Source of the DNA: a bacterium
GTDB lineage: Bacteria > UBA8248
Length of the DNA stretch: 64,000 bases
NCBI GenBank assembly: GCA_965261085.1
Contig: OZ253442.1
Span: forward strand, 2,368,001-2,432,000
Direction: 5' to 3'
Shown here: in pieces, positions 3,395 through 44,544 of the stretch
Layout of the letters: each line of letters starts with the position of its first letter
Position numbering within the stretch: the first letter of the stretch is position 1
Program-made: the position numbers and the translations under genes
Notes under the pieces: generated by a model
Databases searched by the model: none
What the model was told of the DNA's origin: nothing
Seen by the model: the letters and a program-made list of their open reading frames with translations, nothing else

Positions 3395-5143
3395 TTATGC
3401 GGTAAGCGCCTCTTTGCCGGCTACTTTTCGGAAAATGACGACGCAAATCAAAAGCGCAACCGTCTGCGCGATGGAAAGGGCCGCCGTCATGGGTTCGTTT
3501 TCGAAATTGGACAGATAATACACGCCGACGGATAGCGTCTCCGTGCCGACGGAATACAGTATGATGGAAATAGAGAGTTCTCTCAAGAATATGACGAACA
3601 GGAGAATCCACCCGGCGAAAATGCCCGGCTTGAGAAGCGGAATCGTGATTCTCCACAGCGTCGTGAGCCACGAAGCCCCCGCCATGCGCGAACTCTGGTC
3701 GAGTTCTTCCGATACGGCCATCATGATGGAGGAGATGTTCCTCTGCCCGTAGGGGAAAAAGCGCGTGATGTAGCCGAGCAGCAGAATCCAGAGCGTGGCG
3801 TAGATGGGCGTCCTGATGTAGGTGACGAGAACGCCCATGGCCAGCACGATGCCGGGGAACCCGATGGGGATGACGCTCAGGAATTCGAGCATTTTCGAAC
3901 CGAAGCCCTTGGTGCGGTGGATCATGTAGCTCACGATGATGGCCAGCACCATGGCGATCGTAGCGCCGCCGAACGCGAGTATGAAGCTGTTGATGATGCC
4001 GTTGGTGGCCGCCTGGATGCTCTCGGGCCACCAGAAGAAGAGCACCTTCTGGTAGTTCCAAAAGGTGAGTTCCGACCAGATGACGCTCCCCGACCAGATT
4101 TTGTGAAGACTCACGAAGAAAAGACAGACGATGGGAAGAATAACGGCGACGAACACGTAGAATACGTTGTAGCCGAAGGCGAGCCACTTCCAATTGCCCA
4201 GGTCGATGAGATTCGGCCGGAAGCCCTTGCCGGTCACCGTCGTATAGGCCCGAGGCGCGATGATTTTGTGCTGAATCCATATGAAGAACCCCGTCACCAC
4301 GCCCACCACCATGCTCATGGCGGCGCCCAGGTAGTGGTTCGCGTCATCACCCACCGCTTTTGTGAAAATCTGCGTGGTCAGCGTCTCCCAGCCGAATGGA
4401 GCGGAGAGCTTGAAGGGTACGCCGAACTCCCCGGCCGTCGTCACGAACACGATGATGGCGCCCGAGAGAATCGCGGGGGTCACGAGGGGCAGGGTGATTG
4501 TCATGGTGGTTCGGAGCAAGCCCGCTCCCGTCGTCCGCGCGCTGTCCTCGAGCGAGGGGTCCATGCGCCTGAGCGAACCCACCACGAACAGGTAGACGAG
4601 AGGGGCGAAGAAAATTCCCGTCACCCAGATGACGCCCCACAGATTATTCACGTTGAACAGCGAGAAGGAAATGCCGAAAAAGCTTTTCGCCATGTTGTTC
4701 AACATGCCGACTTTCGGGGAGGCCAGGTTGTGCCAGGCGATGGCGCCGACGAAAGGACTCAGGAAGAAGGGGACGAGGTTGAAGGGCTCGAGTTGTTCCC
4801 TGAACGGGCAGTTGGTTCTCGCGTTGACCCACGCGAGCGATACGCCCAGCAGCGTGGCCAGGATGGTGCAGCCCGTGCTGATGATGGCGGTATTGACGAG
4901 GGCTTTTCTGATGACGCGGCCCTGGAATACCTCCCTGTAGTTCTGGAGTCCCCATTCAGTGTCGAAGCCCAAGTCATCGAGCACCAAAAAACTGTTGATG
5001 ACGAGCGCGATTAGCGGCAGGAAGACCGCCACCGCCACGATGAGGCCGACGACGGTCGTAATGATGTTCTCCTGCGTGAACCATGTGCGCCAGCCGCTCG
5101 GGGGAGCGACGTCGAATTGGGGTCTCGCGGTGTCTGTGGCCAT
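3395..5143 (-). CDS. Fe3+/thiamine-type ABC transporter permease (FbpB-like, two fused BPD_transp domains)
   Basis: 582 aa, many hydrophobic segments, two EAA-type loops (LEDSARTTGA, LDQSSRMAGA). Confidence 0.9.
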   Translation of the reverse strand: MATDTARPQFDVAPPSGWRTWFTQENIITTVVGLIVAVAVFLPLIALVINSFLVLDDLGFDTEWGLQNYREVFQGRVIRKALVNTAIISTGCTILATLLGVSLAWVNARTNCPFREQLEPFNLVPFFLSPFVGAIAWHNLASPKVGMLNNMAKSFFGISFSLFNVNNLWGVIWVTGIFFAPLVYLFVVGSLRRMDPSLEDSARTTGAGLLRTTMTITLPLVTPAILSGAIIVFVTTAGEFGVPFKLSAPFGWETLTTQIFTKAVGDDANHYLGAAMSMVVGVVTGFFIWIQHKIIAPRAYTTVTGKGFRPNLIDLGNWKWLAFGYNVFYVFVAVILPIVCLFFVSLHKIWSGSVIWSELTFWNYQKVLFFWWPESIQAATNGIINSFILAFGGATIAMVLAIIVSYMIHRTKGFGSKMLEFLSVIPIGFPGIVLAMGVLVTYIRTPIYATLWILLLGYITRFFPYGQRNISSIMMAVSEELDQSSRMAGASWLTTLWRITIPLLKPGIFAGWILLFVIFLRELSISIILYSVGTETLSVGVYYLSNFENEPMTAALSIAQTVALLICVVIFRKVAGKEALTA

Positions 5144-6902: not shown

Positions 6903-7733
6903 TTGAACGTGAAATCGACCGGTTCGCCTCTCATCCAGACTCACCGGCTGGAAGCCCCCCAGGGTTCGTTCATGGAACACGTTGAGGTGATCCTCATCGG
7001 GGATGGTCCCTACATCCTCTTCGACGCGGGCTACCGCGAGTGCATTCCCGATATGCTCTCCTGGGTGGAGGCGCGCGCCGGGGCCGTGCTGGAAAAACTC
7101 GTCTTGACCCACCACCATTTCGACCACTCCGGCGGCGCGAAGGCGGCGTGTGAGCGATTCGGCGTTTCGGCCTGCGCCCACCCCCTGGAGATGGGCTTCC
7201 TCGAGGAGGAAGAGCCGGATCTGCCGGTTTCTCCGATTAGAGAGGGGGAATTCGTCGAGTTGGGAGAAATGCGCTTCGAGGCCATCCTGACGCCGGGCCA
7301 TTCTCCCGGGCACCTTTCTTTCTGGTGGGAAGAGGAGAAGATTCTCCTGGGAGGCGACAACGTTCTTCTCCCTTCGACCACGGCGGTGGTCGCGCCCAAG
7401 GGGAATCTCGGCGATTATCTCGAATCGCTGGAGAAGGTGAAGAGCCTCGCGCCTCGTCTCATCTATCCGGGCCACGGTCCGGTGATCGAGGATCCGATCG
7501 GCAGAATCGACGAACTTATAGAACACCGCAAGATGCGCGATGCGCAGTATCTCGAGGCGCTGGGCGCAGGGCACGATACGCCAGCCAAGATAGCGGACCT
7601 CATATATCAGGATTTGCCCGAGCGCCAGAGAAACCTGGGCGCCCGCGTGATAGCGCTGCACCTGGAGAGGTTCGTGGAATCCGGAGAAGTCGCGTGCGCC
7701 GATGGGCGCTATTCATTGACGGGAGCGCTTTAG
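6903..7733 (+). CDS. MBL-fold metallo-hydrolase (LACTB2-like, C-terminal winged helix)
   Basis: THHHFDH, TPGHSPGH, GGD, YPGHG motifs. Confidence 0.88.
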   Translation: MNVKSTGSPLIQTHRLEAPQGSFMEHVEVILIGDGPYILFDAGYRECIPDMLSWVEARAGAVLEKLVLTHHHFDHSGGAKAACERFGVSACAHPLEMGFLEEEEPDLPVSPIREGEFVELGEMRFEAILTPGHSPGHLSFWWEEEKILLGGDNVLLPSTTAVVAPKGNLGDYLESLEKVKSLAPRLIYPGHGPVIEDPIGRIDELIEHRKMRDAQYLEALGAGHDTPAKIADLIYQDLPERQRNLGARVIALHLERFVESGEVACADGRYSLTGAL

Positions 7734-25999: not shown

Positions 26000-26198
26000 G
26001 GCAAAGACATAAATCAAATAAATCAATCCGACATCGATGCGCCTGAATGCGCTATTGTATTATAACTATATGTTTTATTTGCTTATATTTCTTATTTTCG
26101 ATTTAAGACCTCTTGCATTTTCGCCACATTCATGCTTGAATGCGCTCCTGTTTGATACCGCTCGTATGCGTTTTGATTACGAATATTCAGGAGGGCGC

Positions 26199-27374
26199 AT
26201 GCCGAAAAGAAGCGAGTTCAAGCTCCTCAAGCGAGCCGTCGACGCGCTCGAAGTCGAAGGGAAGGATGCGGTCTTCTGGGACCGGGACTTGGCCGGCTTC
26301 GGGGTGCGGGTCCACCCCACGGGCAAGAAGGTCTACGTGGTGCAGTCCCGGGGGCCCGGAGGTCCCAAACGCGTGACGCTCGGCCGGCACGGGGATATCT
26401 CGACCGATGAGGCGAGGAAGCAGGCGGCCTCCGTCATCGACCGCATCAAGCGAGGCGAGGAGCCGAAGCCCGGACCGCCCGAGGCGGAACTCACCGTGGC
26501 CGGACTGGCCGAGCGCTTCATGCGCGTTTATGCCGGGGCGCACTGCAAGCCGGGCACAGTCGCGACGTATCGCTCCATACTGGAGAACCACGTCCTGCGG
26601 GCTCTGGGCTCGATGACGGTAGGCCAGGTCGGAGCAGCCGAGATATCGGCATTGCACCACCGGCTTCGCGAAACGCCGAGGATGGCGAACTCCGTGGTCG
26701 ACGTGCTCTCGCGGATGTTCACGCTGGCGGAAGCGTGGGAACTGACTCCGCCCGGGAGCAACCCGTGCCGGGGGTTGCGCCGCTACAGGATGCGCCCTTG
26801 TGAGCGGTTCCTCACGCCTGAGGAATACCGGCGCCTGGGCCGGGTCTTGGGGGAAACGGAGGGAACGACCTGGCCGCCTGCGGTCACGGCTATCCGGTTG
26901 TTGATGCTGACCGGATGCAGGAGTAGCGAGATACTGAACCTGCGCTGGGACGACGTGGACCGTACGGCGGGCGAGTTGAGGTTGAGGGACACCAAGACGG
27001 GCCCGCGCATGGTTCCCGTGACGGCGGCCGCCCTTGACGTGCTCGACGCGATCCCCCGTTCTCCGGGAATCCCCTGGGTGATCCCCGCACAGAAGGGAAG
27101 GGGCCGCCTCTCGGACCTCTATCACTACTGGCGGCCCATCCGGGCGCAGGCCGGTCTCCACGACGTACGCATCCACGATTTGCGGCATTCCTACGCCAGC
27201 AGGGCGCTGGCGCTGGGCGAGGGCTTACCCGTGATCGGGAGGTTGCTCGGACACAAGGAGGTCGCGACGACGGCGCGCTACGCGCACCTGATTCGCGACG
27301 CCGAGAAGGCCGCGGCGGTCCGGGTGGGCGAGAGCATCGGGGCCCACGTCGCGCGGAACGAAGATGAGGCATGA
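26199..27374 (+). CDS. Tyrosine recombinase/integrase 1 (N-terminal arm-binding domain)
   Basis: FWDRDLAGFGVRV, TGCRSSE, KTG, HDLRH, LGH, TARY; AGGAGG SD. Confidence 0.93.
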   Translation: MPKRSEFKLLKRAVDALEVEGKDAVFWDRDLAGFGVRVHPTGKKVYVVQSRGPGGPKRVTLGRHGDISTDEARKQAASVIDRIKRGEEPKPGPPEAELTVAGLAERFMRVYAGAHCKPGTVATYRSILENHVLRALGSMTVGQVGAAEISALHHRLRETPRMANSVVDVLSRMFTLAEAWELTPPGSNPCRGLRRYRMRPCERFLTPEEYRRLGRVLGETEGTTWPPAVTAIRLLMLTGCRSSEILNLRWDDVDRTAGELRLRDTKTGPRMVPVTAAALDVLDAIPRSPGIPWVIPAQKGRGRLSDLYHYWRPIRAQAGLHDVRIHDLRHSYASRALALGEGLPVIGRLLGHKEVATTARYAHLIRDAEKAAAVRVGESIGAHVARNEDEA

Positions 27375-27387
27375 GGGAGGAATGGAC

Positions 27388-28584
27388 ATGACGAAGCTCG
27401 CATACAGGACGCTCTCGAACCGGATGGTAGGGAAGCTTACGGTCGAAAAAGATACCGTATTCTGGGACAGGGAGCTCACCGGCTTCGGTGTGAGGGTCTA
27501 TCCCACGGGGAGTAAGGTGTACATCGCGCAGGCGCGGGGACCGGAGGGTCCCAAACGTGTGGCGGTTGGCCGCCAGGGGGTGATCCATGCGGAGGAGGCG
27601 CGCAAGCGGGCCGCCCTCATCATCTCCCGGATCAAGGCGGGTGAGGCGCCCGTGCCCGAACCATTGATACCCGCCGGCGGGCCGAGCGTGGCCGAATTCG
27701 CTGCGCGGTATCTCACGGAATACGTCTCGGTGCGGTGTAAACCGCGCACCGTAAAACTGGCCCGCTCCGTGGTCCACAGGCACATCGCGCCGGCCCTGGG
27801 CAGGATGCCTCTCGCGGCGGTCGAACGCGCGCAGGTGGCGGAGCTCCACCAGAAACTGTACGAGACGCCTGCGATTGCGAACGCCGTGGTCGGCGCTCTG
27901 TCTTCGATGTACAAACTGGCCGAGGGCTGGGGACTGGTCCCCGAGGGAGTGAACCCCTGCCGCTCCCTCGTCAAATACCCCGGACGCAGGCGGGAGCGGT
28001 TCCTGACGGAGGCGGAGTTTATGCGCTTAGGGAGCGTACTGGACAACGTCGAAGCGAAGGGCGTCGCGTCGGCGCCAGCAGTGGCGGCGATCAGGCTCTT
28101 GATACTGACCGGGTGCCGGAAGTCGGAGATCCTCACCCTTCGCTGGGAAGACGTGGCGCCGGATGAGAACGAACTGAGACTGCCCGACACGAAGACGGGC
28201 GCGCGGGCGGTCTCGCTCTCGCCCCCAGCGGTCAAGCTCCTCGCCGGTCTCCCGCGCTTCCCCGGAAACCCCTGGGTCATACCCGGCAGGAAGCCGGGCG
28301 GGCGCCTGAGCAGCCTCGATTACGTCTGGCGAATCATCCGCGAGCAAGCGGGCCTGGAAGACGTCCGGATCCACGATTTGAGACACTCCTACGCCAGCCG
28401 CGCCCTGGCTCTGGGCGAGTCCCTCCCGATGATCGGGAAGTTGTTGGGCCACAGCCAGATACAGACCACGGCGCGCTATGCGCATCTGGCGCGCGACTCG
28501 GTGAAAGAGGCCGCAGAGCGCATCGCCGCGAGCATCGCGATTGACATTCTGGGTGAAGACTGGAGGCATGCTTCCGTTTCATGA
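27388..28584 (+). CDS. Tyrosine recombinase/integrase 2, tandem paralog
   Basis: Same motif set (TGCRKSE, HDLRH, LGH, TARY); start 27382 or 27388. Confidence 0.93.
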   Translation: MTKLAYRTLSNRMVGKLTVEKDTVFWDRELTGFGVRVYPTGSKVYIAQARGPEGPKRVAVGRQGVIHAEEARKRAALIISRIKAGEAPVPEPLIPAGGPSVAEFAARYLTEYVSVRCKPRTVKLARSVVHRHIAPALGRMPLAAVERAQVAELHQKLYETPAIANAVVGALSSMYKLAEGWGLVPEGVNPCRSLVKYPGRRRERFLTEAEFMRLGSVLDNVEAKGVASAPAVAAIRLLILTGCRKSEILTLRWEDVAPDENELRLPDTKTGARAVSLSPPAVKLLAGLPRFPGNPWVIPGRKPGGRLSSLDYVWRIIREQAGLEDVRIHDLRHSYASRALALGESLPMIGKLLGHSQIQTTARYAHLARDSVKEAAERIAASIAIDILGEDWRHASVS

Positions 28585-33410: not shown

Positions 33411-33686
33411 CCTCGCCGCGCGCGAGGTGCGGCTCACCGATTCGTAGACCGGTGCGCGGAGCGTGTCGCTCTCGCCCGAGGCGGAGGAGGTGCCGGCGAA
33501 CGTCCCCTGGGTTGCGGGCAATCCATGGGTCATTTCGGGCAAGGTCGGGAGAGAGCATATGCGAAACCTGAACGACCCCTGGGGGATCGTCCGGGAGCGC
33601 GCGGGACTCGATGACGTGCGGCTCCACGATTTGCGTCATTCCTTCGCCTCTCGCGCCTTGGCGCTGGGAGAGAGTCTGCCCATGAT

Positions 33687-35219
33687 GGGGCTGTTGAAAA
33701 AGTTCTGGTTTTGTGATCGGATGCAGGTATACCCACTCGCCCGAGAGGGGAAGTCTCCGAGATGTTGGGACACAAGAATCGCGAGCAACTGGACTTATTC
33801 GTGGCGGGTTCTCTGGAGCAGTTGATCCCGAAGGATCACGTCCTGGTCCGCGTGGACCGCGTTCTGGACCTGGCTGGCTGCGCGAGGAAGTGGCGGATTG
33901 CTATTGCGCGGAGGACGGTCGTCCTGGGATCGACCCGGAAGTAGCGGTACGGCTGATGCTGGCGGGTCTTCTTCTGGGCTTCGTCCATGATCGCCGGCTG
34001 ATGCGCGAGGCGCAGGTGAACCTCGCGATTCGGTGGTTCATCGGGTATGGGCTGCACGAGCGTCTGCCGGATCATTCGAGTCTGACGCGTATCCGTCAGC
34101 GCTGGGGGGAGAAGCGATTCCGGGAGATATTCCGTCGGACGGTTCGTGCGTGCCTGGACGCGAAGGTGGCGAAGGGGGAAGTGGTGCACGTGGATGCCTC
34201 TCTGATCCGTGCGGACGTGAGTTGGGAGAGCCTGGTGGAGCGTCACGTGGACGAGGTGATGGCGGAGAACGCCGTGGAGGAGAAAGATGAAGGCGGGGGC
34301 GGAGGGGGCCTGGGCGGCAAGGGCAAGCCTGCGAAGGTGAGCCGCACGGACCCGGACGCGAGCATGGCGACCCTGGCGAGCAACCGGCGGCACGAGCCTT
34401 GTTACAAGCAGCACGCAGCGGTGGACGATGCGAGAGGGGTTGTGCTCGACGTATCGGTGACGACGGGCGCGGTGAGCGAGCGGAAGATGGTCGAGGCCCA
34501 GGTGGATTCGGTTTGTGAGATTACAGGGCGCGGGATTGCGACGGTGCCGGGGGATGCGGGTTACGCCTACGCCGGGGTCTATGGCGGTCTCGAGCGCCGC
34601 GGGGTCGAAGCGGTGATACCGGTGAGGAGAGACCCGCCGAGGAGCCGGGTTCCGTTGCGCCGGTTCCGCTACGACGCGCGCAACGATGTTGTGAAGTGCC
34701 CACGGGGAAAGACCTTGCGTCGCGTGCGCAAGAGCGGGCGCAAACGCTTTTTCCATTCGAGAACCCGTGACTGCGCGCGCTGTCCGCTGCGCAGCGCGTG
34801 CCTGCCGCCCTCGGGCACGAAGAAGGAGGTTGTGATTCCGCATGATTATCCGGCGCTGCTCCGGGCCCGTCGCCGGCACGCGCGATGGAGCGAGGAAGAG
34901 CGGCGAATGTACCAGCGTCACCGCTGGCGCTCGGAGGGCTTCCACGGCGAGGCGAAGACCTGGCGCGGGCTGGGACGCGCAGTGCGGCGCGGTCTGGACA
35001 ACGTGAAGATACAGTCCTACCTGACGGCGGCTGCGATCAACCTCAAGCGGCTCGCCGCCGCTGTAGTTGTCCGATTATGCGTCCCCTGGATGGCCTGCGT
35101 CGCTTGGAATCGCTGTCTGAAGGCCCATGATGCCCACAAACGGCAAAACGGCCTCGGGGTGACCCAAGCCGCCTGAACCTGAAACGAACCGTTCCGAAAC
35201 CCAGTTCTTCAACAGCCCC
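33687..35219 (+). mobile_element. IS1182-family insertion sequence
   Basis: TIRs GGGGCTGTTGAA / TTCAACAGCCCC; flanks ATGAT / ATGAC resemble a target duplication; interrupts an integrase frame. Confidence 0.88.
33762..35176 (+). pseudogene. IS1182-family transposase with a frameshift near 33870
   Basis: MLGHK...LIPKDHVLVRVD in one frame; GRPGIDP, PDHSSL, VDAS, DAGY, CPRG, EGFHGEAK in another. Confidence 0.8.
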
Positions 35220-35346
35220 ATGACAGGAAAACTGCTCGGTCACGCCCAGGTCGAGACCACGGCGCGCTACGCGCATCTCGCGCGCGATTCGGTGCATGAG
35301 ACCGCGGAACGGGTCGCCGCGAGCATCGCCGCCGACATCCTGGGCG

Positions 35347-35463
35347 AGGAGCCGGCCGGCGCGGATGGGACGAAACCCCCGAACGGGGGAGAGCGTCACC
35401 ATCGCCGCCTCGAAGACGCCGTCCTTCAAGGCCGGCAAGGCCCTGCGGGACGCGGTGCGCTAG
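35347..35463 (+). pseudogene. C-terminal half of an HU-family gene
   Basis: Manual translation [38 protein letters not shown]. Confidence 0.8.
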
Positions 35464-35599
35464 CGTTCGGCCGGCCTCAGGCCTCGCCTGGGTCACGGCG
35501 CGGCCCGTCCGGCGATGTCGATGCGTTTGCCCCAGGGTTCGCGGTTCCAGTCCTCTGGCAACTTGCCGTAGTTACGCCAGCAAACCGGGTAACCTAGCT

Positions 35600-36110: not shown

Positions 36111-36544
36111 TGCATGGCCTCGTCTCAGGCCTGTTCTTCGGCAGCGATTGCCGAGAGCAGTGCACATGCAGCGGCAAATCAAGCAGGAACAGCGCCTTGG
36201 AAGTCCTAGAGCATTCGCGATACACGCTCCATCTTGAGCATGGACAGCGAGGACGCGGGCGAACACGCTGGTCGCGCATTTGCCGCTGACTTGCGCACCT
36301 GACCCGAACTCTAGCCCCTAACAACAGCTAATTTTTATAAGGTTACGCTATTCGGTGCCGGATGCAGCCGCTGAACAGAAGCCTACACTTTAGAATCAAG
36401 GCGAAGCTAGTATCTCGACTATGCGGGAAGCAAGGGTAGTCATCGAGGTCAAGCATGGTTCGTTTTTGGATGTTGAGCGAGCCGGTGTAACAGGATGGAA
36501 TGGGAAAGTAGGTTCAGGATAGCCTGCGAGAGAATGGCAAAAGA

Positions 36545-37468
36545 TCATTGGGCGCTAACGGGACCGATGACCAACGAGGCGTAGTCAGACTCATAGAGCT
36601 TCTGATGTTCGCTGACTGCCAGACGTTGGAGACAATGTATTCGCCAATAGTCCTGCCAGTCTTGGGAATGGTATTCGTGATATTCCACCACTAATCCGAT
36701 TTGAGGATCCCGAGCATCCTCCCATGAAATCATTTGGGCGTGTGACAACCACCGTTGCGTATCAAGCAGTTCGCTCACAGTCTTTGTCCAGTTTCCTCCA
36801 TTACGGAACATCCCATGTTTCAGTAATTTTTCGGCGGCTTGGCGGGCTCGCTTAATTGCCACTTCACACAATTTAAGGGTGGCGGGATCAAGTTTACCCA
36901 GCATGGTCTGAGCCGCAATATTATTGGGATCGGCCCTGAGCGTCTCGTCATGTTCTTTATACGCATCAAGGTAGTTCTGTACTGATTGCCATCTGCCAAA
37001 GAGAGGTATTTGCGGATCGATTGGTCCGAGTTCCGACATGTCGCTCATCACGACGCTGTCAGCTCCGAGGACCATGAGTGTCCCAGCACTCTTAGCGAAT
37101 TCCGGAACGACGATGCGGAGCTTGGCCGCACCGACAAGGCTCCTCAGCATTCCCATCAGCTTCTCAGCGGCATCGATGCTGCCCCCTTTGGTGTGAAGCA
37201 GCAAATCGACGTTATGGTTCGGTGGTACATTGTGAAGAAGATCGACGAATGGCATGATGTCGTCGTCATCAATGACACACTCGTTCCCGGATACGTAGCA
37301 GATTAATATATGCCCGGTGCGGTCTTGAATCTGTTTGATCACTGCCTGACGATGGTAGCGATCAGCGGTATTTGCTTGGTATAGTGGCGTCTTGGTGGGC
37401 GGTTTCGGACCATTTTTAGGGTCAGGTGGAAGATCAGCGCCGTTGTCTGATGAAGACTGTTCTGTCAT
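36545..37468 (-). CDS. SDH/S49 (ClpP/SppA-fold) serine protease
   Basis: LLLHTKGG, AKSAGT (Ser nucleophile), SELGPIDPQ, SHAQMI; AGGAG SD before ATG 37468. Confidence 0.85.
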   Translation of the reverse strand: MTEQSSSDNGADLPPDPKNGPKPPTKTPLYQANTADRYHRQAVIKQIQDRTGHILICYVSGNECVIDDDDIMPFVDLLHNVPPNHNVDLLLHTKGGSIDAAEKLMGMLRSLVGAAKLRIVVPEFAKSAGTLMVLGADSVVMSDMSELGPIDPQIPLFGRWQSVQNYLDAYKEHDETLRADPNNIAAQTMLGKLDPATLKLCEVAIKRARQAAEKLLKHGMFRNGGNWTKTVSELLDTQRWLSHAQMISWEDARDPQIGLVVEYHEYHSQDWQDYWRIHCLQRLAVSEHQKLYESDYASLVIGPVSAQ

Positions 37469-37472
37469 TTGG

Positions 37473-37823
37473 TCACTCCTTACTTGTATTGACCGCCCAG
37501 ATGGTCTTGCCCGCGCGTATAGTGAAGTGACAGCGCCGCTCCGGGGTGACGCTATCAATGCTGGGGCGGATCGACAGGGGAATTCTTGACTCGATCTTCC
37601 AGACTGGGCGTCGAGTTTTGTCCAGATTCACCATGAGTCGATGCCTCGTTCGGCATGGGCAATCCATCACGGCCCATGTCGCGTTCTTTGGCGGACCAAC
37701 GAGGACAATGCCGCGGTGGGGTAGCCGGTCAGACACCTCATCGCCGGCGAGGACTTGGCCGACAATCCGCCAATTGTGCCACGGCAGTGGCAGCGATTGC
37801 CACCAGGCAATCAGGCTCTTCAT
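37473..37823 (-). CDS. DUF6527 family protein
   Basis: WAVMDCPCRT, LMVNL, W...SIRPSI, CHFTIRAG..W; ATGA overlap with the E1 gene. Confidence 0.8.
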   Translation of the reverse strand: MKSLIAWWQSLPLPWHNWRIVGQVLAGDEVSDRLPHRGIVLVGPPKNATWAVMDCPCRTRHRLMVNLDKTRRPVWKIESRIPLSIRPSIDSVTPERRCHFTIRAGKTIWAVNTSKE

Positions 37824-39202
37824 CCCTGCCATGTCTGTTCGAGGTAAGGTTCGGTTACGCCAAGCCCAAGCTTGTGCGCCCCGGGATGGCAATAGTGACG
37901 CTCGCGAGGGTCTTGGTCGTTAGTGGACATCTCACGCTCATGGGATCTGAGCAGTATTTCTGTAGGCGCGGGCTCAGGGCCGTAGTGAATGAGTCGCTCG
38001 AGCAATTCGCTCACGGAAGTTGACGCGACCTGTGTCGTAAACGTTACGACTGCAGGTTGGGCGTCCAACAGCGCGGGTGCGTAGCCTTCTTGGACGAGCT
38101 GACTGTATTCACCCGACGCGAGCATTTCGGCGGCGGCTCGTTGTAGGTCAATGCGATCGCGGCAGACTAAACAGGCAGCACCAGGAGCGAGTACCGTCAC
38201 GCGACCGTCGATGCCAGTCAGTTGTCCGCTTGGGCCACTGCTCAGTAGCACACCACAGTCAATAACGGGCGTTAGCAGGTACGAAGCGACGCGGGACAAC
38301 ACGAGCCGGCCAGCGTTGTCATCTGTGCAGCCAAAGATGACATCAGCATCGAGCAGCTGCCTGGCCGCGGATTCCAGCGTTATTTTGGCTTGCGTGGTCA
38401 CAACTTCGGCATCGGGTGCAATCTGCAACACGTGAGCCGCAATCACATCCACTTTTGGTTTGCCAACCCGATTGAGGTAGGACCCGTATACGCGCGTGAC
38501 GTTGCCTGCTATCAACGTATCTGGATCAAAGAGGTGGAGATGACGTACGCCCAATCGCACGAGCTGCTCGATAACTGCCGACCCGGTACCACCGCAGCCG
38601 ACGACGGCGATGTTTAGGTTGCCGAGCACTTGTTGGATTTCGCCGCCAAATGCGCGAATGTTGCGATCAAATTGGTCGGAGGGTGGCACTATGTCGTGTA
38701 ACCAGTTCTGAATGAGCGTGAAACGCCGCCCGGTAACCCACAAGCGATCGATATCGGTTCGCTTATTGTCGGATTCGATGTGGCCGGTGAATTGGAGGCG
38801 ATGCCCCGTCGGAGCGAGGACAATTGCTCCATATAGGGGGCTTCCTGCACGAAGTCGGAAGAGGTCAGCAAGCTGTTCGTCGACGATCTCGTCATGCTTG
38901 CTTGGTCTGGGCGATGACTCCTTGCCAGGATGCGTGTGCAGCCAGATGGGAACAGACTGATCGGCCTCCGCCGCAGCGAGTGCGGGCACGTAACCGTGGG
39001 AAGCAATGCTGAGCCCCGTGGCATCGCGCCGAAGGTAGGCGTCATCCGGGACCCAATGCACCGCACGGGCGAGCAAGCGGACGTTTCCGCACGGCGTCTC
39101 TACTAGTCGTGCCAGCAGAACACAGGCTGTCTCGATGTCAATGGCGGTTGCCTCAAGGAGTTCATCTGCGATCTGAGTTGACAACACGAGGGTGACGGTC
39201 AT
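37820..39202 (-). CDS. JAB/MPN-like peptidase fused to a ThiF/E1 ubiquitin-activating domain
   Basis: N-terminal E...HTHP...PSKHD; C-terminal VGCGGTGS, DPD..NVTR, GCTD, ACLVC. Confidence 0.88.
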   Translation of the reverse strand: MTVTLVLSTQIADELLEATAIDIETACVLLARLVETPCGNVRLLARAVHWVPDDAYLRRDATGLSIASHGYVPALAAAEADQSVPIWLHTHPGKESSPRPSKHDEIVDEQLADLFRLRAGSPLYGAIVLAPTGHRLQFTGHIESDNKRTDIDRLWVTGRRFTLIQNWLHDIVPPSDQFDRNIRAFGGEIQQVLGNLNIAVVGCGGTGSAVIEQLVRLGVRHLHLFDPDTLIAGNVTRVYGSYLNRVGKPKVDVIAAHVLQIAPDAEVVTTQAKITLESAARQLLDADVIFGCTDDNAGRLVLSRVASYLLTPVIDCGVLLSSGPSGQLTGIDGRVTVLAPGAACLVCRDRIDLQRAAAEMLASGEYSQLVQEGYAPALLDAQPAVVTFTTQVASTSVSELLERLIHYGPEPAPTEILLRSHEREMSTNDQDPRERHYCHPGAHKLGLGVTEPYLEQTWQG

Positions 39203-39591
39203 CGGTGTATTTCCGGCACACTACGTACGAGGTCTTGCCGTATCAGGGCGAGAAAGCTCTCAAGACCATCGATTCCAGATTCCCATTGTCCGTTGTTGAA
39301 GTGTCTCGACCAGCGTTGCCAGCTGCGGCCGAGATACGATTCCACGACATTGGTGGCGGGCAACACTTGGCCATTCTTCAGGTTAACGTGGGGCGAGAAC
39401 CACCACATGTCGGGGGGAACATCTGGATAACCAGGACTGAGGCGTATCAGAAGATCTGATACATTTCGATCAAACCCTCTCGGGAGTGGCCACTGGAGCA
39501 TCACGACGCATGTCATGCCCGACTCAGAGGCGATCTGGTGGGCCAGACCCCGTTCGTTCAGGTAGTTCACGTCCGATTGTGGAAGAGCCAT
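39199..39591 (-). CDS. Prokaryotic E2/UBC-like protein (family E type)
   Basis: LPRGF, LLIRLSPGYPDVPPDMWW, WQRWSRH; ATGA overlap with JAB-E1. Confidence 0.85.
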   Translation of the reverse strand: MALPQSDVNYLNERGLAHQIASESGMTCVVMLQWPLPRGFDRNVSDLLIRLSPGYPDVPPDMWWFSPHVNLKNGQVLPATNVVESYLGRSWQRWSRHFNNGQWESGIDGLESFLALIRQDLVRSVPEIHR

Positions 39592-39896
39592 GGAAGATGT
39601 CCAGAAGTTCGGCGGCCAGGACGGTATGCGCCAGGATTGATGGTGTTGGGTGCGGTAAAAAAGCGCAAGCCGTCATGAACCTCGACCGTGTCGTCGTCCT
39701 TGATCTTGCGGTCAGGGTGGCCGGGAATGACTTGGAAGAGATCGCGCTCGGGCGGGATCGGATTCGGCGGGAGAAAACGAAGCTGAGCCCCGGTGATCTT
39801 CTCATCCGGCCAATCGTACTGGGTTCGATCAATCCGGATGGTAAATACCTTGTGCCCCGGTTTGTCCTTGTCGGGAATTGGATTCTCTGTGGCCAT
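39567..39896 (-). CDS. Ubiquitin-like (multiubiquitin-family) protein with C-terminal extension
   Basis: FTIRID...ITGAQL...DLF...D..I..DDTVEV.DG.RFFT..NTINPG plus 20 aa; AAGGAGG SD. Confidence 0.8.
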   Translation of the reverse strand: MATENPIPDKDKPGHKVFTIRIDRTQYDWPDEKITGAQLRFLPPNPIPPERDLFQVIPGHPDRKIKDDDTVEVHDGLRFFTAPNTINPGAYRPGRRTSGHLPWLFHNRT

Positions 39897-39917
39897 GGTG
39901 TTCCTCCTTAGTTTCTT

Positions 39918-39999
39918 GATACCATGATACCATAATGCTATGACGCCACGCAACCCCTATTGTATGCCAGTTGACAACCGCGCGCTCAAATTGGAGAAT
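39918..39999. promoter_or_regulatory. Divergent promoters with 8-bp tandem operator-like repeats
   Basis: Minus strand TTGCGT-18-TATCAT (TG-extended); plus strand TTGACA-17-GAGAAT; repeats GATACCAT GATACCAT AATGCTAT GACGCCAC. Confidence 0.55.
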
Positions 40000-40006
40000 C
40001 GAGAAC

Positions 40007-40219
40007 ATGAAACCTGTCAAAGCAATGACAATTCGCTTGTCTGCCGATCAGTCAGAGCAGTTGGGCACGATCGCGGCCGTCGTCGGTCAACCGGTTTCGC
40101 ATGTGATTCGTTCGGCGATCGCAGAGCATATCGAGGAACGCAAACGTGACACCGCGTTTCAGGACATGCTCCGCGAGCGCATTGAGCGGGCACGGTTGAT
40201 GCTGCCGAACGACAAGTAG
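40007..40219 (+). CDS. Ribbon-helix-helix (CopG-like) regulator
   Basis: KAMTIRLS...PVSHVIRSAIAEHI; 70 aa; divergent from the Ubl operon. Confidence 0.8.
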   Translation: MKPVKAMTIRLSADQSEQLGTIAAVVGQPVSHVIRSAIAEHIEERKRDTAFQDMLRERIERARLMLPNDK

Positions 40220-40712
40220 TAGGGCGGACAAGGTTCAGAACGGGTGCGGCCAGCAATCGCCAGTCTTCACCATGCCGCTGATTGTGTCGACAGGCGATCC
40301 CTTGAAAATGCGTGTCTTATCATCTGTAAATGTGTCTGTTGACCTCCGTAGTGGAGCGGTTGTGCGGGCGGATACGGATTTGATCGCTCCTCCCGGCCGC
40401 CTCCACGCGGTGGCGAGCGCGAGTGCTGCTGGCCTGTGGGTGTAGACTAAGAGACCTGATGACGGTTCCGCTCCAGCGAGGCGTCGCGCACGGCCTTTTC
40501 GAGTAACCGGAGCAGCGTCAGTACCTTCGCCGAGCGGTACACGATGAAGGCGGCCCGGTACCCGAACGGCCGAGACCGCTTGAGGGTTCGGTTCGCCGTG
40601 GGCGAATAGAGGAGAACTGAAGGGGCGCCCGCATCGGACGGAGGGAAGCGGACGGCCTGGCGACGTTCACGGGTAGGGGATCGGATGTGTGTAAGAAAGA
40701 AGGAGCACAACG

Positions 40713-41459
40713 GTGTGTGACAAAGGAACCGACGGCACCGTGAGCAGCGATCTATCGTGGTTCGAATCACTCCCAGACGACCGGTCTTGGGACTCATTGT
40801 GGAGTGGGTACATTCGTTGCGCTTGCGGCGGAATCCGCACTACAGAGGCGCATTGCCCCGTATGCGGCGAGGACCCAACAATTTCGGACTGGGTGATTGT
40901 GCACGATACTGACGGCAAGGAGTACCGTGTGCCGTCCGCCTTTATGGGCGCTGAGGGCAGGTATGAGGATTGGATCTACCTGCGAATGCTGGAACGGGAG
41001 TGGTCAAGGCCCGTCGAGGCGGACCTGTATGACTTGATCCCGGAGAACCATCGCCCTTCCGCGCGAGCGATAGTCGTGCTGGTGTTCTGGAGCTACTTCG
41101 AGACGCGAATCGAAAGGCTTTTTCGGGAAACGGGGAAGGGGGTGCCCGAGAAAGTGATGGACCACCTTCTGGATCGCCATTCCTTCGTCGGCACGCGGAT
41201 GGACAGGCTCTACAAGGTGGTTTTCTCAACGACGTACCGAGCCGATCTCAACGACCTCGGGTACAGCAAAGTGGCGGCGCTCCTAAAAAAGGTTGAAAAG
41301 TGTCGAAACAGGTTCACTCACGGCCAACCGGAAGCAATTGACGACGCACTGGTCGAAGAGCTTGTGGCGGGTCTGAAGGAAGAACATGAGGGTTGGATCG
41401 CCGTCTTCAACAGGCGGCTGAAGGAAGCGCTCAAGCGATCGGCAACACTGCAAGGCTGA
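40713..41459 (+). CDS. Zn-ribbon plus HEPN-like domain protein
   Basis: CACGG...CPVC; WSYFETRI; RNRFTH (RxxxxH). Confidence 0.65.
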   Translation: MCDKGTDGTVSSDLSWFESLPDDRSWDSLWSGYIRCACGGIRTTEAHCPVCGEDPTISDWVIVHDTDGKEYRVPSAFMGAEGRYEDWIYLRMLEREWSRPVEADLYDLIPENHRPSARAIVVLVFWSYFETRIERLFRETGKGVPEKVMDHLLDRHSFVGTRMDRLYKVVFSTTYRADLNDLGYSKVAALLKKVEKCRNRFTHGQPEAIDDALVEELVAGLKEEHEGWIAVFNRRLKEALKRSATLQG

Positions 41460-43531: not shown

Positions 43532-44544
43532 TCATGAGCCGGAAGCATGCCTCCAGTCTTCGCCCAGAATGTGGGTTGCGATACTGTCCGAGATCCGCAC
43601 CGCCGCCTCGTGCACCGAATCCCGCGCGAGATGCGCATAGCGCGCCGTGGTCTCCACCTGGCTGTGGCCCAACAGTTTCCCTATCATGGGGAGAGACTCG
43701 CCGAGCGCCAGGGCCCACGACGCGTAGCTGTGCCTGCAGTCGTGGATTCGCATGTCCTTGATCCCCGCGCGCTCGCAGACGATCTCCCAGGGGTCGTTCA
43801 GGTTGCGCATGGGCCTGCCCTTGACCTTGCCCGGAATGAGGAAGGGATTCTCCGGAACGCGCGGGACGGCCGCCAGGACGCCGGCGGCTTCGGGCGAGAG
43901 CGATATCCTCCGCGGGCCGGTCTTGGTGTCAGGCAACCGGTGCTCTCCCGCCCCGAGGTCCACCTCGTCCCAGCGAAGGTTGAGTATCTCCCCCTTCCGG
44001 CATCCGGTCAGCAGGAGCAGGCGGATAGCCGCCACCGCGTGGACCGAAACCCCCTTGCGGGTCCCGGCCTCGTCGAGCACCCGGCCGAGGCGCCGGAACT
44101 CCTCCCCGGTCAGGAAGCGCTCGCGGGCGCGCTCACGGTACTTGACCACCAGCCGGCACGGGTTGACGGCCTCGGGGATCAGGCCCCGCTCCCCGGCGGC
44201 GTTGTATATCCGCGAGAGCGTGTCCACCACGCGGTTCGCCATGACCGGCGTAGCCCTGAGCTCGTGGTGCAACGCGCTCACATGGGCGTGTCCGACCGCG
44301 AGAGCGGACATTCTACCGAGCGCGGGCAGGATGTGTTTCCGGACGGCCTGTTCGTACATCTCAGCCGTTCTCGGCTTGCACCGCACCGCGACGTGTTCCT
44401 CGAGATACGCCCGGGCGAGTTCCGCCTCGCCCGGTCCCTCGACCGGCGGTTCGGGCACGGGCTCCTCGCCCGCCTTGATCCGCGCGATGAGGAGCGCCGC
44501 CCGCCTGCGCGCCTCGAGATCGTCTTCTTCTCAAACCTCGCCAT
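43532..44544 (-). pseudogene. Integrase 2-like paralog in inverted orientation with the arm domain deleted
   Basis: MARFEKKTISR jumps to ARRRAALLIARIKAG; TGCRKGE, HDCRH, TARY; C-terminus GEDWRHAS as in integrase 2. Confidence 0.85.

Follow-up and report, generated by a model that had tools for sequence, protein, structure and literature searches.

The question raised by the operon analysed here is whether a ClpP-fold serine protease encoded at its end serves the ubiquitin-like conjugation for which its other genes are equipped. The operon lies in a stretch of 64,000 nucleotides from a bacterium (GTDB lineage Bacteria; UBA8248), taken from NCBI GenBank assembly GCA_965261085.1, contig OZ253442.1, positions 2,368,001 to 2,432,000 of the forward strand; this whole stretch is referred to below as "the window", and positions given with no other label are counted from its first letter. 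Bub systems were described in 2024 as true but chemically unusual ubiquitination-like systems whose function is open, the main text reporting no phage phenotype, targets or output, and the same literature treats the Bil systems as antiphage (10.1101/2024.11.21.623953), which agrees with what a preliminary description of this locus had stated about both. On the evidence of its sequence matches and conserved residues, the locus is an intact Type I Bub operon (the type formerly called "6E.1/DUF6527") and belongs to a distinct and widespread subtype, recognizable by a divergent RHH gene, a separate ubiquitin-like protein (Ubl) made as a pro-protein that ends in INPG plus a tail, a serine-type E2, a JAB-E1 fusion with a catalytic tyrosine, the DUF6527 protein BubE, and a translationally coupled, apparently soluble SDH-type protease. 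The six genes are horizontally transferred together, as one module, among at least five phyla, and the analysis supports the protease as a genuine and conserved part of this form of the operon, not a mere neighbour. That the protease acts as an output or effector enzyme coupled to Ubl conjugation is the interpretation developed here, and it is put forward as quite possible though short of probable.

The five genes of the operon are all read from the minus strand. The first, bubA (39896-39567), encodes the Ubl pro-protein of 109 amino acids with a single beta-grasp domain (Multi_ubiq, PF14452, 1.5e-13); it is followed by bubB (39591-39199), which encodes a cysteine-less E2 of 130 amino acids (Prok-E2_E, PF14462, 1.9e-36), by bubCD (39202-37820), which encodes a JAB peptidase-E1 adenylase fusion of 460 amino acids with an N-terminal JAB motif (ThiF, PF00899, 6.4e-36), by bubE (from 37832 or 37823 to 37473), which encodes the DUF6527 protein, a Ser-His peptidase with a zinc site (PF20137, 2e-15), and finally by the gene of the SDH-type ClpP-fold serine protease (37468-36545), a protein of 307 amino acids (PF01972, 2.9e-16). 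The RHH/DUF6290 gene diverges from the operon on the plus strand (39971, with the start probably at the ATG at 40007, to 40219; PF19807, 3.4e-6; RHH_1, 0.0086), and the intergenic region between them (39897-40006) contains two tandem copies of TGATACCA at 39917-39932, which may be an operator; the RHH protein is probably a repressor of the divergent operon. The open reading frames (ORFs) and Pfam matches place all five genes and the RHH gene where the preliminary description had put them. Its account of their junctions requires one correction: the E2/E1 junction is indeed an ATGA overlap, as is the E1/BubE junction if BubE starts at 37823, and 4 nucleotides separate the bubE stop from the protease ATG, but the Ubl and E2 ORFs overlap by 25 nucleotides in different frames and not by an ATGA. 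The possibility that this longer overlap represents a frameshifted BubAB fusion was considered and dropped, because the Ubl ORFs of relatives are separate and have their own stops in various frames. A scan of 36300-40300 found no terminator-like site between bubE and the protease gene, and the scan as a whole performed at chance level for promoters and terminators (2 found against 2.3 expected, and 3 against 2.9).

The assignment to Type I follows from the best matches of the E1 and the E2. The best sequence match of the E1 in the PDB is Citrobacter BubCD (E 1.6e-26, over query residues 24-408), and the sole PDB matches of the E2 are to Citrobacter BubB (6e-10). The catalytic residues are conserved as well, which bears out the earlier designation of the operon as Bub-type. 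Among 58 relatives of the E1, no variation occurs at E24, H89, S101 and D104 of the JAB part, at Y374 of the E1 part or in the GxGxxG motif, while H91 is conserved in at least 90%; the Pfam JAB model gives no match to the fusion at E<=0.01, so that the JAB assignment is made from the motif and the BubCD match. Residues S95, H97 and D61 of the E2 are kept in all 73 of its relatives, S95 being the likely equivalent of the published catalytic serine. BubE keeps S91 and H102 in 66 of 66 relatives and the metal-site residues C58, C60, H64 and C101 in 64-66 of the 66. In the Ubl, P88 and G89 are invariant in 32 sequences, giving a mature end of ...INPG that is followed by variable tails of 0-20 amino acids; G89 is kept in 63 of 66 relatives, and the window's Ubl has a tail of 20 amino acids after it.

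The operon therefore resembles published Type I Bub in its Multi_ubiq Ubl with a C-terminal glycine, its cysteine-less serine E2 with accompanying His and Asp, its JAB-E1 with a catalytic tyrosine, its DUF6527 protein with a Ser-His pair and its setting on a mobile element, and it departs from that type in several respects. The published type has a fused BubAB, whereas here the Ubl and E2 are separate ORFs, as they are in the relatives, whose Ubl ORFs also stand alone, and the Ubl consists of a single beta-grasp domain with a short tail; the locus is for this reason a variant of Type I and not its canonical form. In addition, BubE carries a histidine (H64) in place of the third zinc-binding cysteine of the published protein, the divergent regulator is an RHH protein instead of CapH/CapP or CapW, and the operon has a fifth gene. 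The "novel serine protease" of the Bub publication is DUF6527/BubE (10.1101/2024.11.21.623953), so the present operon has three peptidases: JAB, BubE and the SDH protease. The attached protease of the preliminary description is accordingly real, but it is not the only peptidase of the system. An older description of "6e" polyUbl operons (Iyer, Burroughs & Aravind 2006, PMC1779556) likewise lists a Ubl, an "inactive" E2-like protein, a JAB-E1 and a metal-binding protein in mobile, sporadically distributed operons; its row 6e has no protease, and the paper describes links to degradation as "less clear", with only a ClpS neighbourhood cited.

The case for the protease as a member of the operon rests on how tightly it travels with Bub genes, and this was determined by searching from both ends of the association. 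When the protease was taken as the query against contigs from one genome per species, six loci were found at 56-72% identity, in Acidobacteriota, Acidimicrobiales, Anaerolineaceae, a gammaproteobacterium, Dehalococcoidia and "Candidatus Multivorans", and all six have adjacent Bub genes; the full order Ubl-E2-E1-BubE-protease is present in five, and the sixth is disrupted. Among plasmids, the seven records with the protease at 43-46% identity are the same seven that carry the E1 at 50-57%, and the genes are adjacent in every one; the next plasmid matches to the protease, at 32% identity or less, are stand-alone. In all, 13 of the 13 proteases of the window's kind (clade A of the tree described below) that were found starting from the protease are linked to Bub. 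Two of the copies show signs of damage. The disrupted sixth locus (L006 2371-7531, on the "Candidatus Multivorans" chromosome), which has an E1 reduced to its C-terminal part, a BubE, and a protease split by an insert of about 2.5 kb into residues 14-146 (4066-4464) and residues 130-305 (7001-7531), is a decayed copy of the module. On the Microbacterium plasmid NZ_CP027930.2 (6191-8820) the E1 and the protease each match in three pieces, which suggests a frameshifted or decaying copy.

The search from the conjugation side used an alignment of 18 E1 sequences to scan metagenomes, and the best 80 of 267 confirmed loci included 54 that are informative 3' of bubE. The protease lies directly 3' of bubE in 44 of the 47 loci in which the E1 is at least 47% identical to that of the window, and also in the one locus at 46.6%, but in none of the six loci at 38-44%; the gene order of the window recurs in 45 of the 54. 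In 46 of 50 loci the protease start either overlaps the bubE stop, by 4 nucleotides in 25 of them, or is at most 10 nucleotides away from it, although this count takes the candidate start nearest the stop and so favours short gaps. Across 36 loci, the identity between two E1 sequences is correlated with that between the corresponding proteases (r=0.71; none of 2000 Mantel permutations reached this value), and both genes have been inherited together. The preliminary description had held that its reading would suffer if the protease were rarely linked to such operons; the linkage proves to be near-constant within the clade, well beyond what chance would produce.

Outside this clade the picture is different, and the contrast defines the scope of the association. 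Among 51 species genomes of the window's phylum, DUF6527 occurs at seven places in six genomes, and the window's copy is the only one with a PF01972 neighbour, while 13 of the 14 PF01972 matches above the cut-off lie away from DUF6527. The same genome contains a second Bub operon about 46 kb past the high end of the window (G000:C1:2449691-2451592, equivalent to L090 4691-6592), which is of Type II and consists of Multi_ubiq (95 amino acids), DUF6791-ThiF (398 amino acids) and DUF6527 (143 amino acids) genes with no SDH protease; a weakly matching IrrE/M78-like ORF lies upstream of it. Together, the phylum survey and the protease-less Type II operon identify the protease as a feature of the subtype and not as a general component of Bub.

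A second line of evidence comes from a different group of Bub operons in which a protease of the same family occupies the same position. On plasmids of Rhizobium there is a canonical Type I operon whose BubAB is a Multi_ubiq+Prok-E2_E fusion of 372 amino acids; the operon has an HTH_3 regulator and no RHH gene, its E1 is about 26% identical to that of the window, and a PF01972 protease lies directly 3' of its DUF6527 gene. In a tree of 58 SDH proteases, the 41 sequences of clade A form one group (SH-aLRT 97), and the Rhizobium pair groups not with them but, with a support of 100, with stand-alone proteases from genomes that lack DUF6527; an approximately unbiased (AU) test rejects a single clade of Bub-linked proteases (p=3.5e-5). 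Either SDH proteases have entered Bub operons twice or one lineage has left them, and both accounts favour a functional link between protease and Bub over an accidental one.

The position after bubE can also be filled by another kind of protein. The three exceptions among the 47 close metagenome loci (L011 3356-4939, L023 6764-8323 and L037 2464-4128) have in this slot a protein of 519-554 amino acids with a deaminase domain, and the one in L011 matches NCBIfam NF041025, "anti-phage dCTP deaminase", with 405 bits against a cut-off of 400, and the PADLOC dCTPase model at 1e-136. Relatives of the protease, for their part, also exist as independent genes: stand-alone proteases at 29-32% identity occupy accessory positions in phage-plasmids, phages and plasmids. 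A P. aeruginosa phage-plasmid has one adjoining its integrase, an E. coli phage-plasmid has one that separates the Q antiterminator from the holin, and Acidiphilium has one close to a RES-Xre pair and an insertion sequence (IS); others are present in phages of Shewanella, Porphyromonas and Gordonia. Further SDH proteases are found in unrelated clusters, for example rhomboid-SDH-TrxC.

The protease itself appears catalytically intact. It passes the Pfam model PF01972 ("ClpP-like SDH-type serine proteinase") with 59.8 bits against a cut-off of 31.3 and fails the NCBIfam model Clp_like_SDH (NF047768) with 71 bits against a cut-off of 250; by sequence it belongs to the Pfam family, though divergent within it, and is not the NCBI equivalog. 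The serine of the AKSAGT motif, to which the preliminary description had drawn attention, is S127, and together with D151 (in GPIDPQ) and H243 it is invariant in 41 of 41 aligned sequences, which are 41-87% identical to that of the window; K103, K126, E146 and R207 are among the further residues invariant in the same set. Proteinases of the SDH type have their catalytic residues in the order Ser-Asp-His on a ClpP/crotonase-like fold, and from this order and the conservation the three residues are predicted to form the catalytic triad. An AF2 model of the protein (pLDDT 89.6, pTM 0.84, residues 1-14 disordered) finds SppA and many ClpPs in a Foldseek search at E values of about 1e-4, with 10-17% identity and target TM scores of 0.53-0.63, and the sole PDB match of the family profile is Pyrococcus 1510-N/NfeD (3e-6), whose ASAGT aligns with AKSAGT. 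No match to the ClpP model PF00574 (S14) was found at E<=0.01, and the designation "ATP-dependent Clp protease proteolytic subunit" carried by the plasmid relatives is an annotation label only.

The closest structural comparison is with the ClpP-fold, ATP-independent serine proteases 1510-N/NfeD (STOPP) and SppA, which share the fold and an aligned nucleophile motif and include the top Foldseek matches. Both are membrane-bound enzymes with a Ser-Lys dyad, and 1510-N/NfeD performs limited proteolysis of a specific partner rather than bulk degradation. The window's protease differs from them in keeping the invariant Asp151 and His243, and the identity is only 10-17%; its family shows no conserved lysine in what is probably the region of the catalytic lysine of 1510-N, K103 and K126 being invariant elsewhere, and no hydrophobic segment is visible by eye in the protein. 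A complex prediction of the protease with mature BubA (residues 1-89) scored 0.00 in both runs with no folded controls for comparison, which speaks neither for nor against binding.

These observations can be assembled into a proposed mechanism, the conjugation steps of which are modelled on the Bub papers. The JAB peptidase would trim the BubA tail at G89; the E1 would adenylate BubA and then carry it on Y374; the E2 would hold it on S95 and transfer it to target lysines; and BubE would take it off the targets again, with the RHH protein probably repressing the divergent promoter. The SDH protease would be the output arm, its action tied to BubA conjugation: it would either cut the tagged proteins or be switched on by tagging, and it would carry out limited, ATP-independent proteolysis under phage attack or stress. 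On this proposal the position after bubE would be an effector slot that is filled by a clade-A protease, by an unrelated SDH protease in the other Bub clade, or by an anti-phage dCTP deaminase. An output role is preferred because the coupling of the protease to the operon is near-constant, because its recruitment was convergent, because the slot can have a different occupant and because relatives of the protease are autonomous. The more specific form of the proposal, in which BubA tagging hands targets to, or activates, a dedicated ATP-independent ClpP-fold protease in a self-contained "tag-then-cleave" module that has arisen at least twice through the recruitment of SDH proteases, is doubtful.

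Several points weigh against an output role. The ORFs and Pfam matches of the operon include no unfoldase or ATPase gene, which makes a proteasome-like degradation of folded tagged proteins unlikely, and Bub conjugation as such does not require the protease. The loci sampled from metagenomes are biased towards close kin, which are not independent of one another. The tree is a "quick" one with long branches among its stand-alone rows, and the group submitted to the AU test was named after the tree had been seen. The deaminase is named by NCBIfam and PADLOC as a stand-alone defence protein, and its position after bubE may reflect no more than the neighbourhood of an island. Finally, the presence of the protease varies together with that of the RHH gene: an RHH homologue lies divergently upstream in 30 of the 31 protease-positive loci that are informative for both genes and in none of the seven protease-negative ones (both genes in 30 loci, protease alone in one, RHH alone in none, neither in seven), a pattern which also fits a regulatory role.

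The regulatory alternative, which is unlikely in our estimation, would have the protease respond to stress or phage by inactivating the RHH repressor, or some other product of the operon, and thereby induce Bub expression, as a two-gene counterpart of CapH+CapP or of a self-cleaving LexA-type repressor. Besides the co-variation, it can draw on the deaminase loci with enough upstream DNA, L011 and L023, both of which lack the RHH gene, L023 having in its place a divergent LexA-like HTH+S24 self-cleaving repressor (3490-4134), and on the occurrence of CapH+CapP at 168 of 544 published Bub operons (31%) and of CapW/BrxR at 43 of the 544 (10.1101/2024.11.21.623953). The co-variation, however, is mostly between clades and so is not independent, and in the Rhizobium clade the protease belongs to an operon that lacks an RHH gene and has a regulator of the HTH_3 kind; the stand-alone relatives L096 and L098 have no annotated adjacent RHH gene either. 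The likeness to CapH+CapP and LexA-type systems, which extends to a small DNA-binding protein divergent from a defence-like operon and a protease in the locus, is limited in that the DNA-binding protein here is an RHH and not an HTH protein, the protease is a serine ClpP-fold enzyme and not a metallopeptidase, and its gene is at the 3' end of the operon, far from the repressor.

Less likely again is that the protease is a third Ubl-directed enzyme, trimming the pro-Ubl tail, recycling conjugates or acting as an E3-like transferase through S127. BubA is a separate pro-protein with a variable tail after the invariant INPG, the E1/E2 chemistry of Bub proceeds through tyrosine and serine oxyesters (10.1101/2024.11.21.623953), and the protease gene is coupled to bubE, which encodes a BubA-specific peptidase; all of this would suit such an enzyme, but JAB and BubE are fully conserved in the same operons, so that no processing or deconjugating function is missing, and in the Rhizobium clade the protease accompanies a canonical fused BubAB. 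It is quite improbable that the protease is an autonomous single-gene accessory or defence enzyme that has no more than its transcription unit in common with Bub, which may hold for the dCTP deaminase too. The stand-alone SDH proteases of about 300 amino acids in phage-plasmids, phages and Acidiphilium, and the PF01972 matches of the window's phylum that are not near DUF6527, are what such an enzyme would lead one to expect; the uniform Bub linkage of the clade-A proteases found from the protease side, the co-divergence of protease and E1, the overlap of start and stop codons and the presence of a second protease lineage in the same slot all argue against it. An output role coupled to conjugation accordingly remains the reading preferred here, at the tentative strength already given.

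Among known systems, Type II CBASS (Cap2 E1-E2, Cap3 JAB) offers a working analogy for this reading, and not a family membership, in that it joins a Ubl-type conjugation core and a reversing peptidase to a variable output gene, a comparison based in part on the discussion in the Bub paper; the present operon differs in having no cyclase and no nucleotide signal, and the conjugated species here is a true Ubl. The Pup-proteasome and ubiquitin-proteasome systems are comparable in concept only, since they link the conjugation of a tag to a compartment-fold protease; no AAA+ unfoldase is encoded here, and a path from tagging to degradation is hypothetical. Gong et al. (10.1101/2024.11.21.623966) consider a degradation signal unlikely for bacterial Ubl tagging. 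The terms ClpP, S49, SppA and SDH do not occur in the main texts of the Bub preprints, whose supplementary operon tables may list neighbouring genes, and the literature searched on Bub, 6E and DUF6527 operons and on SDH proteases yielded no mention of such a protease in these operons. The PADLOC v2 models gave no match for the protease, BubE, E2, Ubl or RHH proteins; PADLOC thus does not catalogue the module as a defence system, and this does not count against a role in defence.

The setting of the operon in the window is that of acquired DNA. GC content is 0.53-0.57 across 36-44 kb against 0.65-0.70 in the flanks, and a DDE transposase gene (33713-35176), a DDE_3 fragment and several integrase genes, together with a DNA methylase gene (Pfam), surround the operon; the decaying island of the preliminary description was found as it had said, and a fair description is of an intact operon in a low-GC, IS-ridden, integrative and decaying island that was horizontally acquired. 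Tandem tyrosine-integrase genes with Arm-DNA-binding domains, which overlap by 11 nucleotides, lie at 26037-28584 and a third integrase gene lies at 43532-44458; more than one integrative element may have contributed to the island, making it a composite. The DDE transposase gene is flanked by tyrosine integrase C-terminal-like ORFs (33463-33825 and 35220-35597), and to judge from their translations an IS appears to have inserted into, and broken, an integrase gene at 33463-35597. No tRNA gene that could mark the border of the island is present within the window. An ORF of 248 amino acids (40713-41459, plus strand), which has CxxC pairs and no Pfam match, adjoins the RHH gene, and a homologue 50% identical to it lies directly 3' of the protease in L031 (6628-7308). 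A protein of about 1100 amino acids, with PD-(D/E)XK nuclease, RNase-H-like and SF1 helicase parts ("TM0106 family RecB-like"), stands beside the module in eight loci (L007 7679-11035, L021, L027, L033, L040, L041, L046 and L099), on either side, on either strand and with both protease clades, and is probably the product of a separate defence gene that shares the island.

Public sequencing data contain relatives of the module. Of 22 matching runs, two are metatranscriptomic; they come from one study and each contains 0.09 of the words. Contigs of 116-340 nucleotides from the RNA libraries, 90-98% alike, cover parts of the protease gene (36444-36650 and 36729-36926) and of the E1, E2, Ubl and RHH genes; they represent relatives and not this strain, such libraries may contain DNA, and none of the contigs listed bridges bubE and the protease gene. 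In run X5, contigs are identical to the window only over 37226-39250, and one contig diverges at 37225, within the protease gene, which may be a recombination breakpoint in a related strain.

The five-gene Bub form with an SDH protease is widespread and apparently undescribed, and its consequences for the study of these systems are several. A mobile Bub subtype keeps a ClpP-fold protease that looks catalytically intact tied to bubE, which provides a testable hypothesis for the output of Bub; a second Bub clade has independently filled this slot with another protease from that family, and a few loci hold a known anti-phage effector there. The form of the operon to favour in phage and stress assays is accordingly the one with all five genes and the RHH gene. 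For the poorly studied SDH protease family, the locus supplies the first genomic context for one of its clades. If the "tag-then-cleave" proposal were true, it would supply the output that Bub has so far lacked and would set a precedent, in prokaryotes, for the coupling of a Ubl tag to proteolysis without a proteasome.

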